From a virus (Duplodnaviria > Heunggongvirae > Uroviricota > Caudoviricetes): a stretch of 33,607 nucleotides of DNA. Below, piece by piece: positions 9,114 through 32,819 of this stretch. Numbering within the stretch: position 1 is the stretch's first letter; each line of letters begins with the position of its first letter. The stretch is taken from positions 88,725-122,331 of the IMG/VR virus record IMGVR_UViG_3300036790_000261. One strand, 5' to 3'. A program made the position numbers and the translations under genes. The notes beneath the pieces are model-generated. The model had not been told where the DNA came from. It made no database searches and saw only the letters and a program-made list of their open reading frames with translations.

Positions 9114-9149
9114 TTCTTTTCCTTTTCTTGACTGCCACGTGGCAGTTGG

Positions 9150-9223
9150 GTGCCGGGCGCGGGCCGCAGGCGCATACGCATTGGCGCGCGTAACATCGAT
9201 GTCCCGGCTCCCGCGCCCGGCAC
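9150..9223 (-). ncRNA. Solo TIGR-like unit in a long stem
   Basis: A 14-bp inverted repeat (9150-9163/9210-9223) encloses ACA-TCGATGTTA-CG-cgcg-CCA-ATGCGTATG-CG (minus strand). Confidence 0.6.
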
Positions 9224-11385: not shown

Positions 11386-11405
11386 GCCGTTCTCCTTGCT
11401 GTTGC

Positions 11406-11567
11406 CACGGGCGTGCCGCGCCTGGGTTGCGTATCTGTATTGGCCCGTGCTGCCTTGTGCGGGTCGGGCGTTCATACATTGGCGCTCGTCTAGATATTGG
11501 CCCGCTTTGCCTTGTGCAGGGCGGGCGCTGCCCTTGGGGGTTTCGCTTGTATCTTGGCCCGCCCTGC
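11406..11567 (-). ncRNA. Three-unit TIGR-like stem-loop array (57-nt period)
   Basis: Each unit is stem-CCA-N9-CG-N4-CC(A/C)-N9-CG-stem. Spacer pairs: AGATACAAG/CAAGGGCAG, ATATCTAGA/ATGTATGAA, ATACAGATA/GGCGCGGCA. Linker GCACAAGGCA. A TACAGT -10-like hexamer lies just upstream. Confidence 0.75.
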
Positions 11568-19162: not shown

Positions 19163-20677
19163 TCATCCCTCCAGCAGGTGCGAGCCGACGCGCAGCGCGT
19201 TAGCCATCGCGGTCAGCGCGGGGTTGACCGCGCCGATGCTCGGGAACACGGACGTGTCCGCGATGTACAGGTTGCCCAGGTCGTGGCTCTTGCAGTTCGC
19301 GTCCACGACGGAGGTCGCCGGGTCGTCGCCCATCCGCGCGGTCCCCGCCTGGTGCGCCACGCCGGCCAGCGGGACGCGCATCCCCGCGAACACGTTTCGG
19401 TCCATGACATGATGCGCCGCGATCCCGGTGTGGTTCATGATCGTGCGCAGCTCCCGGTAAAGCCCGTCCGCCGCCCGGTCGTTGTTCCGCGCGTAGGAGA
19501 GCCGGATGTCCCCCCCGGACGTCAAAGACACCCGGTTGTACGTCGCCGGGAAGTCCTCGGTGGTCAGCCAGAAGTCAACCGCGTGCGACGCGACCCACGC
19601 CAGCGTCTTGCCCGGGGCCAGTTTCGCCAGGGCGTCCTCGCCGCGCATCGCCTCCGCGCACGACTTGCCCACCATCTGTATCGAGCCGAGCGTGTCGATG
19701 AAGTCATGGAACGCGAGGGTCTTCTGGAAGACGGTGGTGTTCCGCTCCCGGTCGATGGCCAGCACCGCGCGGCTGTTGTGCATCATGAAGTTCGCGCCGA
19801 CCATGCCCGAGCTGTTCGCGATGCCGGAGGCCAGCAGGATCTTCGCGGTGTTCGCCGCGCCCGCCGCCAGGATCACCGTGTCAGCCGTAAAGCTGTCGGT
19901 CCCGCCGTCCTCGATCGCGTACTGGACGTCAACGCGGGTGACCCGCTGCCCGGTGATGTTCGTTCCCAGCTGCACGACTTCCGCGTTGGTGACCAGCGTG
20001 ACGTTCGGCAGGCCCAGGACCGGGCGGATGCCGATCACCTCCGCGTCCGCCTTGGCGTGCAACTGGCACGGGTGCCCGTCGCACGTGTTGCACCGCACGC
20101 ACGGCAGTTCCTTTCCGGGCCCGCTCTCGTTCAGCAGCACCGCGGACGGCGCGTGGAACGGGTGGTAGCCGGCAGCGGCCAGGTCGTCCGAGATCCGCTG
20201 GATATGCGGGCTGTGGCTGACCGCCGGGTACGGGTACTGCTGCGACCACCAGCCCTCGGTGGGGTCCTCGCCGTGGTTCCCGTGCACCTGGTACAGCTGC
20301 TCGGCGCGGGAGTAGAACGGCTCCATGTCGTCGTAGCTGACCGGCCAGGCGGGCGAGATGCCGTCAGCGCTGACGCGCAGCCGGAAGTCGGACGGGCGCA
20401 GCCGGAACAGTGCCGCCCCGTACCGCTTGGTCGCCCCCCCGACGTAGTAGCTCGCGTTCGGCGCGAACGCCTTCCCGTGCCGGTCGTACCAGGTGTCCTG
20501 GCTCACGTACCGGCCGTCGATGAACACCGACTTCGGGTCCCAGTTCTCTCGCTCCTGCGGCAGGAAGTCACCCCGCTCCAGGATCAGGATCTTGCGGCCG
20601 GCCTCCGCGAGCTGGCGGGCGATCGTGCCGCCCCCCGCCCCCGTGCCGATAATGATGAACTCGTACTCGTTGCTCAT
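19163..20677 (-). CDS. GMC-family FAD oxidoreductase
   Basis: IIIGTGAGGG dinucleotide-binding motif, ILILERG, VGGATKRYGA, VILAAGAANTAKILL, HQAGTARMG...VVD, NLYIADTSVFP..GAVNPALT. Confidence 0.92.
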   Translation of the reverse strand: MSNEYEFIIIGTGAGGGTIARQLAEAGRKILILERGDFLPQERENWDPKSVFIDGRYVSQDTWYDRHGKAFAPNASYYVGGATKRYGAALFRLRPSDFRLRVSADGISPAWPVSYDDMEPFYSRAEQLYQVHGNHGEDPTEGWWSQQYPYPAVSHSPHIQRISDDLAAAGYHPFHAPSAVLLNESGPGKELPCVRCNTCDGHPCQLHAKADAEVIGIRPVLGLPNVTLVTNAEVVQLGTNITGQRVTRVDVQYAIEDGGTDSFTADTVILAAGAANTAKILLASGIANSSGMVGANFMMHNSRAVLAIDRERNTTVFQKTLAFHDFIDTLGSIQMVGKSCAEAMRGEDALAKLAPGKTLAWVASHAVDFWLTTEDFPATYNRVSLTSGGDIRLSYARNNDRAADGLYRELRTIMNHTGIAAHHVMDRNVFAGMRVPLAGVAHQAGTARMGDDPATSVVDANCKSHDLGNLYIADTSVFPSIGAVNPALTAMANALRVGSHLLEG

Positions 20678-20820
20678 GCTCTGCCCTTTCGGATTCGCTC
20701 GGTAACGCTCTGCGCGGCCATGATGATGCCGCCCACGGCCGGGAGGAAAACAAGGCCGATGACGTAGCAGGCCAGCTGTGTGTAGTTCATGCCGTTCTCC
20801 TTTCAACTGCCACGCGGCAG

Positions 20821-21195
20821 TCAGCACTCGCCGGTGCTTCCGCCGTTTTGCACGGCCGTGGTCGTGGACACGGAGCCCGCGCCGCTCTCGGTGACGTAGA
20901 ACTGCACGCCTGCGTAGCAGAAGCTGGTGATGTACACCACGGTCCCGCCTGACTGGTACGGGCTGTCCGGGATCTTCGTCCACTGGATGTCCCGCATGTC
21001 CGTCGCCCCGTTCAGCGGGCGCACCGACGGGGCAGGCGGGGGAGGGGGCAACGGCGCGGCCCTGCGCGACGATGAATTCACCGGGGGCGGCGTGCTGCTA
21101 CCTGAGGTAAGGCTGAGGCAAACCGGAACTGTGACGCCTGCGGCAATGAGCAGGCCGGCCGCTACTCCCAGCGTGTTGACGGTGCTGCTTTTCAT
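20821..21195 (-). CDS. Secreted or membrane-anchored Pro-rich protein
   Basis: N-terminal hydrophobic segment; bounded by palindromes on both sides. Confidence 0.6.
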   Translation of the reverse strand: MKSSTVNTLGVAAGLLIAAGVTVPVCLSLTSGSSTPPPVNSSSRRAAPLPPPPPAPSVRPLNGATDMRDIQWTKIPDSPYQSGGTVVYITSFCYAGVQFYVTESGAGSVSTTTAVQNGGSTGEC

Positions 21196-21934: not shown

Positions 21935-22627
21935 TTAGAACCTCGCCCGCGGCGCGGCCAGCGCGGTCTCGTAGTTGGGGTGCAGCACCTTGTTGTCCTG
22001 CGCGATCCGCGCCTTCCACTGGTAGAAGCCGATCGGGGCGCCCTCCCACTCGGCGACGAAGCTGACGTAGGCCGGCGCCTTCATCTCGTGGTGGTCGTTG
22101 CGATCCGGCCCGATCTCGGCGACCTTGACGTCCCCCGCCATGAAGTGGAACTCCTCGGGCTCGCCGCTGGTCGGGTGCTTGTGGATGCTGACGGTGTCGG
22201 TCAGCATGACGGTCTCGCCCTCGGCGTGCTCCAGCCGCTCCGGTGACAGGACCTGGTGGCCGGTCAGGTGCGCGGTGTAGAAGCGGTTCAGGTCCGCCCA
22301 CGTCATCTTCAGGTCGGGCCGGTCCTGCGCCGGGTAGCCCGGGTCGTTCGGGTTGACGCACAGCGGCTCGACGGTCACCGTCATCCACGGGAAGAACGGG
22401 AACGAGGTGTACGCGTCGTGGACCGCCTGCACGTCCGCCACGTCCCACAGCGCGATGTGGTTCCTGGTGCCCGGAACACGCCACACCCGGGCGAACTCAC
22501 CCGACTCCAGGTACGGCCGGGCTGCCTCCGCCTCCGCCGCGTACATCTCCTGCTCCCACTGGTCATCCTTCACCAGGTCCCTGGCGGCCGGGAGCCTCAG
22601 GTTCATGCGGACGAGGAACATTGCCAT
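21935..22627 (-). CDS. Muconolactone delta-isomerase (CatC)-like domain plus a C-terminal extension
   Basis: MFLVRM...E...A..Y.ESG...RVWRVPG...IALWDVAD...H....SFPFFPWM.VTVEPL..NPND. Confidence 0.8.
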   Translation of the reverse strand: MAMFLVRMNLRLPAARDLVKDDQWEQEMYAAEAEAARPYLESGEFARVWRVPGTRNHIALWDVADVQAVHDAYTSFPFFPWMTVTVEPLCVNPNDPGYPAQDRPDLKMTWADLNRFYTAHLTGHQVLSPERLEHAEGETVMLTDTVSIHKHPTSGEPEEFHFMAGDVKVAEIGPDRNDHHEMKAPAYVSFVAEWEGAPIGFYQWKARIAQDNKVLHPNYETALAAPRARF

Positions 22628-22680
22628 TGCTTTCTCCTTCTGCTGACTGCCACGCGGCAGTTGGGTGATTGCTGTTTAAG

Positions 22681-22826
22681 GCAGTGCGGCCCGGCGCCTG
22701 TCTAGTAGGCATCGTTTCCGGGATAGCCGGGCCGCACTGCTGCTCTTTGGGCTTGCTGCGGTTAAGGCAGTGCGGCCCGGCGTTCCCAAACTGGGGGACG
22801 TATTAGGACTGGCCGGGCCGCACTGC
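22681..22826 (-). ncRNA. Two-unit TIGR-like stem-loop array (86-nt period)
   Basis: Identical 15-bp stems GCAGTGCGGCCCGGC enclose 30 nt. Minus strand: CCA-GTCCTAATA-CG-tccc-CCA-GTTTGGGAA-CG and CTA-TCCCGGAAA-CG-atgc-CTA-CTAGACAGG-CG. Confidence 0.7.
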
Positions 22827-22840
22827 TGTTCAGGGACGGG

Positions 22841-23119
22841 CTAGAAGCGCCCGACGTAATCGAGGAATTCCTGCACGGCCAGGGTGGTGAACGAAACGCC
22901 CCCCACCACGTCAGCCCCCAGGATCGGGCCGCCGACGAATGAGATCAGGCCGGAGCAGCCGAGCAGGCACATGTGAATGTGCAGCCGCCGCTGCATCTTC
23001 ACTGCCTCCTCCTCTTCCGACTTGACGAACTTGTGCAGCCCGACATCGAGCTTCGCCCGCGTCACGTGGTACCAGCGGGTCATCCGCTCCAGGCAGGACT
23101 TGCGGATCTCGACGATCAT
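22841..23119 (-). CDS. Small membrane protein
   Basis: Hydrophobic C-terminal half. Confidence 0.55.
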   Translation of the reverse strand: MIVEIRKSCLERMTRWYHVTRAKLDVGLHKFVKSEEEEAVKMQRRLHIHMCLLGCSGLISFVGGPILGADVVGGVSFTTLAVQEFLDYVGRF

Positions 23120-31693: not shown

Positions 31694-32819
31694 GTGAGTG
31701 CCTTTCTCGGATTCTGTTCGTGCGATGCGCACGTGGCCGGCGTCATTCGCGGGGAATGATTCCGACCATGCACGGACGTACGATGTCAGTCGACGTCGAC
31801 AGTAGGGGCGCGGGCAGTGTCCAATTCGTAGCCCATACTCGCGGCGTATTCTGTGGCGTAGTCAAGCGCGGATTCTGCGCTTTCGGTGATCACGGGGACG
31901 GTCACGACCGTAAGCGCGGGAAGATCGTTTGTAACAGGTAGCGTGACGAGAAAATGTGTCATTCGGTAACCTCCGTTACTCGTCAGGAAAAATCATTGAT
32001 GAATGCGGAAATACCGCCATCGTATTCGCGCTCAACGGCTAGATCGACGTCGTATGCGCCCATGGTGGACGCGTTACGGTATCCCCAATCGTGGAGAAGC
32101 TCACGCGCGTCATCCATTAGGACGATTGGGACGACAATGACAGATGGCATTCGGTAACCTCCGTTGTGAGGTGACTGCCAGGTGGCAGTTTCGCGCGGCC
32201 CGCTGGTCTGATACCAGTGACACCCGTTGCCAGCGCCGGCGGTAGGGGTAAGCAATCGGGCCGCACAACTGAATGTGACTGCCAATCGCGGAATCCTGCC
32301 TGTTAGCGCCGCTAGTGACGGACCGCTTAAAGCTATGTGCTACATGATGTGCTACTTGCGTAGGGTTCCTAGAGCGCGATGACACTCGGTTGGCTTTCAC
32401 TGGGAACCGGCTATGTGCATGCCGTGCAACGGATCTCAGAACGGATCAACGGTGCAGTTGCCAGAATGGCTAGAAGCTACCGGCAAACGGTTTGTCATCG
32501 TGAGCGCTTACGCGCTTGACTAGGTGTGATGTACCGATTCCATCGCTTGCCAGCGCGCGTTCCGTGCGGGCAATGCGTGAAGCTGAATCGATCGATACGG
32601 TTTCTACGAACCGTTTAAACGTGGCGCTTGTCGGGCGCACTCTCCGGTGTTGAGTTTTCAAGTTTCGCGCGGGCACCTGCTTGGCACGCTAGCGCTTTGC
32701 CGGGCCGATGTTGTCAACTAGACCAACTAGACACAAGCTATGCGACGCGTGGCAGTTAGGTCAAATGTCAGCCATGTGACGTAGGTCACACTGTGAACTA
32801 GCTTGCCTGCTAGAGATGA

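Follow-up and report, generated by a model that had tools for sequence, protein, structure and literature searches.

The window, that is, the whole stretch of DNA analysed here, is 33,607 nt long and corresponds to bases 88725-122331 of a 122,331-bp virus record (IMGVR_UViG_3300036790_000261); its G+C content is about 65%. Two hairpins are located between two genes of this 122-kb soil phage, at genome positions 111405-111550, in a part of the window where the minus strand is the gene direction. The upstream neighbour is a 92-aa gene of unknown family (22841-23119, minus strand) that has a homologue in the same position in the related phage loci L004 and L090. The downstream neighbour (21935-22627, minus strand) encodes 230 amino acids with an N-terminal muconolactone-isomerase-like domain (Pfam PF02426, E 7.8e-19). 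This gene served as synteny anchor, and its homologues gave the syntenic loci of the relatives. It is unusual phage cargo, as is the GMC-family FAD oxidoreductase gene at 19163-20983 (minus strand), and the synteny of both genes is kept across relatives. The stop codon of the 92-aa gene lies 14 nt before the first hairpin on the same strand, which puts the hairpins in a 3'-UTR position. They end 20 nt before a palindrome and the ribosome-binding site of the next gene.

The palindrome, ACTGCCACGCGGCAGT (22646-22661), is one of 24 copies in the window. With up to two mismatches to the 16-bp form ACTGCCACGTGGCAGT, 24 sites are found where 0.35 would be expected, among them 5755, 9131, 14417, 21920, 22646, 25212 and 29517. 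Usually the palindrome stands a few bases upstream of a ribosome-binding site and start codon on the minus strand, and at the corresponding places the relatives have variants of it, e.g. GTGTCACGTGGCAC and GTGCCGGCTGGCAC. Probably a sequence-specific factor recognises it, or it acts as an RNA hairpin signal.

The arms of the two hairpins, GCAGTGCGGCCCGGC and GCCGGGCCGCACTGC, occupy 22681-22695 / 22726-22740 and 22767-22781 / 22812-22826. In both hairpins the arms are 100% complementary over 15 bp and enclose exactly 30 nt, and the distance from start to start is 86 nt. The stem consists of 14 bp plus a C:G pair, all of them Watson-Crick, well within the published minimum of at least 5 bp for the RNA class considered below. 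No exact copy of the stem 15-mer exists beyond these four arms, either in the window or in the whole 122-kb genome. Each unit folds by itself into the 15-bp stem with −41 to −44 kcal/mol and a z-score of −6 to −7. A minimum-free-energy fold of the two hairpins together, in which arms pair across units, was discarded as an artefact of the identical arms. Plus-strand open reading frames spanning the hairpins were also considered, and their coding potential was rejected.

The upstream hairpin, unit 1, covers 22767-22826 on the minus strand (fold −43.6 kcal/mol), with the 5' arm at 22826-22812 and the 3' arm at 22781-22767. Read on the minus strand its interior is CCA GTCCTAATA CG TCCC CCA GTTTGGGAA CG. 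More specifically, a first CCA (box C, 22812-22810) is followed by spacer A (22809-22801) and CG (box D, 22800-22799), then by the loop TCCC (22798-22795), and a second CCA (box C', 22794-22792) is followed by spacer B (22791-22783) and CG (box D', 22782-22781). Unit 2 (22681-22740, minus strand, fold −41.3 kcal/mol) has its 5' arm at 22740-22726 and its 3' arm at 22695-22681, and its interior reads CTA TCCCGGAAA CG ATGC CTA CTAGACAGG CG. Here box C (CTA) is at 22726-22724, spacer A at 22723-22715, box D (CG) at 22714-22713, the loop ATGC at 22712-22709, box C' (CTA) at 22708-22706, spacer B at 22705-22697 and box D' (CG) at 22696-22695. The innermost stem pair joins the first C of box C with the last G of box D. 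Between the units lies a linker of 26 nt (22741-22766). CTTAA follows directly 3' of both units; for unit 2 this is the CUUAA at 22676-22680. The sequence-only reading had described two 86-nt units with identical long stems and unrelated 30-nt interiors. The identity is confined to the perfect 15-bp stems and their immediate flanks, and the linker falls outside the repeat. The interiors are indeed unrelated, since the two units agree at 4/9 and 1/9 spacer positions, which is the chance level.

The arrangement of boxes and spacers is that of the stem-loop tigRNAs. According to the authors of TIGRFinder (bioRxiv 10.64898/2026.09.09.750476), such an RNA has a box C (CCA, CGA, CTA or CAA), a 9-nt spacer and a box D (TG or CG); two such intervals are at most 15 nt apart and are enclosed by a stem of at least 5 bp. 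The same source gives a typical inter-spacer loop of 9 nt and reports CUU at the stem base as the processing boundary. Both units match the published grammar with an inter-spacer gap of 4, and they do so on the minus strand only, in agreement with the box-N9-CG-N4-box-N9-CG pattern that had been proposed for the interiors. The use of CTA at both boxes is likewise real and belongs to unit 2. CTA is one of the published box C variants, and further units of the phage lineage have it too; units with CTA at both boxes number 4/104 there, as compared to about 1 expected. YTT is found 3' of the stem in 5/5 versions of the unit at this site, and CUU at the stem base in only 3/11 dispersed units of this genome.

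Two GC-rich hairpins could resemble this grammar by chance, because high-GC genomes are rich in inverted repeats. One unrelated contig, L091, in fact carries a similar stem in which the grammar is absent; its context is unrelated and it was set aside. From base composition we estimate that a random 30-nt loop satisfies the six fixed interior positions with p of about 3e-4, and this holds per loop, yet the grammar is found in the two units here and in three more in relatives. When the published rule was applied to the entire genome, 40 matches were obtained, as compared to 2.9 on average in shuffled sequence (maximum 7). In most of the matches (35/40) the gap measures 4-5 nt, and the minus strand holds nearly all of them. 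Besides the two hairpins, the 122-kb genome contains about 35 further units of this kind, clustered around the candidate tasA gene described below. Without exception, the units of this genome are downstream of a same-strand gene.

Membership was also assessed with a covariance model, R1, from which the two hairpins were excluded. It was built from an alignment of 45 units adjoining the candidate tasA gene in this genome and in the related phage G002, none of them from the window. In this alignment the stem covaries strongly, with 91.6% of the cells paired, and 0/500 shuffles reach the observed score. When the window was searched with R1, the two hairpins ranked first and second on the minus strand with 36.9 bits (unit 1, E 4.7e-6) and 36.2 bits (unit 2, E 6.6e-6), E values of about 5e-6 and scores as high as those of the array units. 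The plus strand of the hairpins reaches only about 15 bits. Other matches in the window are the units at 11405-11564, 14331 and 6893. Taken with the excess in the genome scan, the alignment of five versions of the site described below and the presence of a Tas gene in the same genome, these scores effectively refute a chance likeness, to which we give almost no weight.

The candidate tasA is a 311-aa gene at genome positions 83103-84038 (L003:13103-14038) on the minus strand, 27.4 kb from the hairpins. Dense arrays, with tRNA genes between them, are found at genome 78.5, 79.9-80.1, 82.6-83.1 and 84.06-84.33 kb, and the gene itself sits between the arrays at 82.6-83.1 and 84.06-84.33 kb. Thus other arrays flank the gene and the hairpin pair does not. 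Neighbouring units in the arrays near tasA share stems. Genes for tRNA-Thr, tRNA-Gln and tRNA-Met are found among these arrays, and one unit with a 10-bp stem abuts tRNA-Thr. The 311-aa protein has 48 homologues, all labelled 'hypothetical'. It has no Pfam match, the Pfam Nop profile has no match across the whole genome, and a sequence search of the PDB with the protein gave no match. An AlphaFold2 model (pLDDT 83) shows a coiled-coil hairpin at the N-terminus and a helical domain at the C-terminus. Its top Foldseek matches in the PDB are TasH (9vzx, 21kl, 9w04) and TasR (9mty), with E of about 1e-6, probability 1.0 and target TM of 0.54-0.71; the next-best matches are IS621/ISCro4 recombinases. 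The NCBIfam profile NF052498 (TIGR_Tas_endo) matches the protein with E 2.7e-23 over profile positions 1-213 of 215, at a score of 83 bits that is below the curated cut-off of 100. There is no HNH or RuvC domain, which makes the protein TasA-like. On the modelled structure and the profile match it appears to be a nuclease-free, TasA-like protein with the Tas fold. Downstream of tasA, beyond an array, is a 346-aa gene (L003:11435-12475) with a DGQHR motif of the ParB/Srx kind that matches PHROG 5931 (function unknown). It may be TasParB-like, an assignment made from the motif and PHROG 5931 only.

Stem-loop TIGR arrays with a nuclease-free TasA have been described for PlTasA, from a Peromyscus leucopus gut contig, and for Bifidobacterium longum BlTasA (Faure et al. 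2025, PMC12045711; bioRxiv 10.64898/2026.09.09.750476, 10.64898/2026.08.11.744272). The units here have in common with those arrays two 9-nt spacers per unit, each between a box C (CCA/CTA) and a box D (CG), a 9-nt inter-spacer loop, a palindromic stem and CUU at the stem base. The systems also share an effector with the Tas fold without a nuclease domain and a stem length that varies within one system. There are differences, too. Described arrays are beside or inside tas, whereas 27 kb separate this hairpin pair from tasA, and the genes in whose 3'-UTR position it sits are unrelated. The stem here is identical between two units and across diverged phages, while published stems diverge even inside one array, and box D in this lineage is effectively RCG, unlike in the PlTasA/BlTasA type. 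The order of tasA, array and 346-aa DGQHR gene, with arrays upstream, downstream and between, resembles the TasA-TasParB operons of Faure et al., although the published examples of these have dual-repeat arrays and here the units are stem-loops with shared stems. Archaeal and eukaryotic box C/D guide RNAs (Nop5/Nop56/58) offer a further parallel in their dual guides, their C/D and C'/D' pairs and their Nop-domain dimer. Unlike them, the phage units have no K-turn and no L7Ae or fibrillarin partner, and a Pfam Nop match is missing from the genome.

The same site in related phages is informative. In L004 the flanks are 88-92% identical to those of the window, and a single unit with spacers CGGTAAAAC/TCAGATTAA is present. 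L090, which was obtained by searching metagenome contigs for the stem, is more diverged: its neighbouring muconolactone-isomerase-like gene is 72% identical in nucleotides and the product 58% in amino acids, and it also has one unit, with spacers ATTACATTA/ATCGAAGGG. In both L004 and L090 30/30 stem bases are identical to the window units and both spacers are new. The order of unit, palindrome, ribosome-binding site and start codon is repeated in these two loci. In the metagenome collection the stem occurs at one other place only, which is the same syntenic site. In a comparison of a soil contig with the window, a joint from 22670 to 22760 corresponds to the removal of one unit, and substitutions are crowded in the loop; this one-unit form is the same as in L004. 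The number of units at the site is therefore one or two. In L006 the stem is slightly diverged and the whole module including CTT is antisense to the flanking genes and tasA. The single non-Watson-Crick position of its stem is G.U on the gene-sense strand and an A.C mismatch on the guide-sense strand. More distant relatives have no unit at the site but a different hairpin, wrapped round their own version of the palindrome, and it may be that the site needs a hairpin as such.

When the five versions are aligned (alignment A3), stems and boxes show no variation at any position, and 0/18 spacer columns are invariant. Spacer turnover among relatives had been named by the sequence-only reading as the outcome expected of guides, and conserved interiors as the outcome that would speak against them. 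The comparison gives the former, with identical stems, retained boxes and complete replacement of the spacers in L004 and L090. Spacer-pair replacement together with gain or loss of a unit at one site appears here as direct comparative evidence at the level of sequence. Further searches for relatives of the locus returned little. The full-stem pattern had no match in the viral contig collection, nor did the neighbouring gene in that collection and in five related virus records. Megablast against GenBank phages gave no match, and Rfam gave sub-threshold noise only (SCARNA21, mir-504).

The sequence of the stem is invariant even though its structure would allow compensatory change, and this points to sequence-specific recognition or to module exchange between phages. 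One form of exchange would be a small mobile or invertible cassette, consisting of the stem and YTT, that moves by phage-to-phage recombination and is kept by its own propagation and not by a guide benefit. The 15-bp stem is identical even where the neighbouring coding sequence is only 72% identical, the unit count is one or two, the whole L006 module is inverted including its CTT, and the site is empty in other relatives, all of which would suit such a cassette. Against it, the stem is confined to this locus in the genome and to one other place in the metagenome, which is syntenic; neither a transposase nor a target-site duplication nor further copies came to light. A dispersed repeat of the REP or MITE kind would have many copies in the genome, and only four arms exist. 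Moreover, selfish spread would leave the retention of the boxes with changing spacers unexplained. We regard a cassette of this kind as highly improbable. A reading that keeps the guide function is that the invariant 15-bp stem is a fixed docking scaffold on which spacer pairs are swapped by recombination within the arms, the module being also duplicated, lost and inverted. This we put forward tentatively, as a possibility with the odds against it.

In the wider lineage, the related phages G001 and G002 have 24 and 51 matches to the tigRNA rule, many of them dispersed single units, with stems of 9-19 bp. In the set of 104 units from G000, G001, G002 and the loci L004-L009 no spacer pair is common to two genomes. 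Position 9 of the spacer is a purine in 93% of the units (A 75%, G 18%, both spacers), which makes box D effectively RCG, and spacer G+C is 47% as compared to 65% for the genome. In most cases the 4-nt loop reads AAAC, GAAC or AGAC. Inside one genome, certain half-spacers reappear next to another partner, which hints at recombination between half-units. Dispersed units of the relatives score equally well with R1 in either orientation. Several high-scoring ones (27-45 bits) are antisense to all flanking genes, namely L006:2878-2923, L006:6430-6475, L009:5581-5626 and L007:4082-4127; the antisense units of L006 and L009 are at the same site after the GMC oxidoreductase gene and have different spacers. 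Units opposite to all flanking genes would imply antisense transcription or promoters of their own. At 9150-9223 (minus strand) of the window there is also a 14-bp outer stem round a degenerate unit, with ACA instead of box C and a broken inner stem. It is located between a stop codon and the palindrome at 9131, placed like the hairpin pair, and R1 misses it at E up to 1.

A rival reading is that the hairpins, placed between two gene cassettes, act mainly as a transcript-end, insulator or RNA-stability element, with the TIGR grammar a relic or passenger that is not used as a guide. Their position argues for this, as a stop codon precedes them by 14 nt and the palindrome and ribosome-binding site follow 20 nt after them, and so do the very stable stems. 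Distant relatives have another hairpin at the same site, the L006 module is in the opposite orientation with a wobble pair that favours the gene-sense fold, and UUUU follows the L090 stem. A GC-rich hairpin directly after a stop codon is also what a Rho-independent terminator looks like. Such terminators, however, have a short loop (3-8 nt), and their GC-rich stem runs straight into a U-tract of about 7-9 nt, whereas here the loop is 30 nt with conserved letters inside it, and the tails after the stems, CUUAACCG and CUUAAACA (CUUAACC / CUUAAAC), contain no U-tract. A consensus scan found no terminator-like site and no sigma-70-like promoter at the locus. Mycobacterial RNA polymerase does not terminate at hairpins without a U-tract (PMC3993855), and the need of the actinobacterial enzyme for a U-tract counts against simple termination at the hairpins. 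If the grammar were a relic, its box letters would decay, yet the six fixed interior positions survive in five versions with the spacers fully replaced, and the R1 scores match those of array units. A transcript-end element with an unused grammar is thus in our view unlikely. The proposal of programmed TIGR-like guides rather than terminators fares better: a Tas-fold protein appears to be encoded, the hairpins lead the R1 ranking, CTA is in the published set and the spacers are replaced between phages. Note that the guide and transcript-end roles can coexist. A secondary role as 3'-end stabiliser is plausible in view of the position, the inversion in L006 and the UUUU after the L090 stem.

Target searches had also been suggested by the sequence-only reading, and they yielded no credible DNA target in either geometry. 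The likelier geometry has the reverse complement of spacer B after spacer A on the same strand; we infer this from the cleavage rule in the literature and from where box C sits, namely at the unwinding junction. In the phage's own genome, 18-mers of all units in four A/B arrangements gave only chance-level matches, at 3 mismatches. Comparison of 94 units with 722 kb of DNA of this phage and related phages gave no match with 2 or fewer mismatches, and the two true geometries showed no excess over control arrangements. No exact 18-mer of either unit, in either geometry, was found in the viral contig collection. In the genome contig collection unit 1 had 8 matches, in Prevotella, Bacteroidota, Lachnospiraceae and Saccharibacteria, which is the chance level, and 0 in Actinomycetota; an 18-mer is too short for specificity in database-wide searches. 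With 16-mer cores that omit spacer position 9, one 15/16 match for unit 1 was obtained at window 32116-32131 (plus strand). Over its full length (32116-32133) it is 15/18, in the less likely geometry, where spacer B comes after the reverse complement of spacer A. Given the number of arrangements tried, the match lacks significance, and we make no claim for it as a target. The site corresponds to codons 5-10 of a small minus-strand gene starting at 32145, just downstream of a palindrome copy.

Our results indicate that the two hairpins are, with high probability, a satellite two-unit array of stem-loop tigRNA genes that belongs to the phage's own TIGR-TasA system. It is important to note that some facts run counter to a guide reading. 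The tasA gene is about 27 kb away, the stems have double the length seen in tasA-adjacent units (5-7 bp), and the L006 module is antisense to its flanking genes and to tasA. The system is of a known kind, stem-loop TIGR-TasA, and is not a new kind of system; what is notable is the distance from tasA, the long sequence-invariant stem and the replacement of spacer pairs.

How such units would work can be outlined as follows. The units would be transcribed by read-through from the upstream small genes, which is suggested by the absence of a sigma-70-like promoter in our scan, and each unit would fold co-transcriptionally into its own hairpin. A TasA dimer could then bind both box C/D pairs, of which one is at the stem and the other at the 9-nt loop, and an RNase may trim the RNA near YUU at the stem base. 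With a TasA that has no nuclease domain, the outcome would be binding, i.e. a block of transcription or replication, and not cutting. By analogy with characterised Tas systems, the targets would be DNA and not rRNA. In addition, the upstream mRNA is probably shielded at its 3' end by the GC-rich 15-bp stem.

TIGR-Tas systems were described in 2025 (PMC12045711), and the origin of spacer pairs, the natural targets and the role of TIGR-Tas in phages are stated open questions (PMC12045711; bioRxiv 10.64898/2026.09.09.750476). Since published surveys annotate arrays in the vicinity of tas loci, they would miss units tens of kb away. If our assignment of the hairpins is right, the genome of an actinobacterial soil phage has guides dispersed throughout it, a long stem of conserved sequence in a terminator-like position can hold a guide, and on one syntenic scaffold a spacer pair has been replaced wholesale between phages otherwise about 90% identical. 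The value of the locus is that it would document how spacers are exchanged in nature while the scaffold stays fixed, within a clonable stretch of 250 bp. Should the stem indeed be a docking scaffold, the locus and its L004, L090 and L006 counterparts would form a natural time series of TIGR spacer acquisition, and phages would scatter single guides as 3'-UTR hairpins that double as transcript ends.
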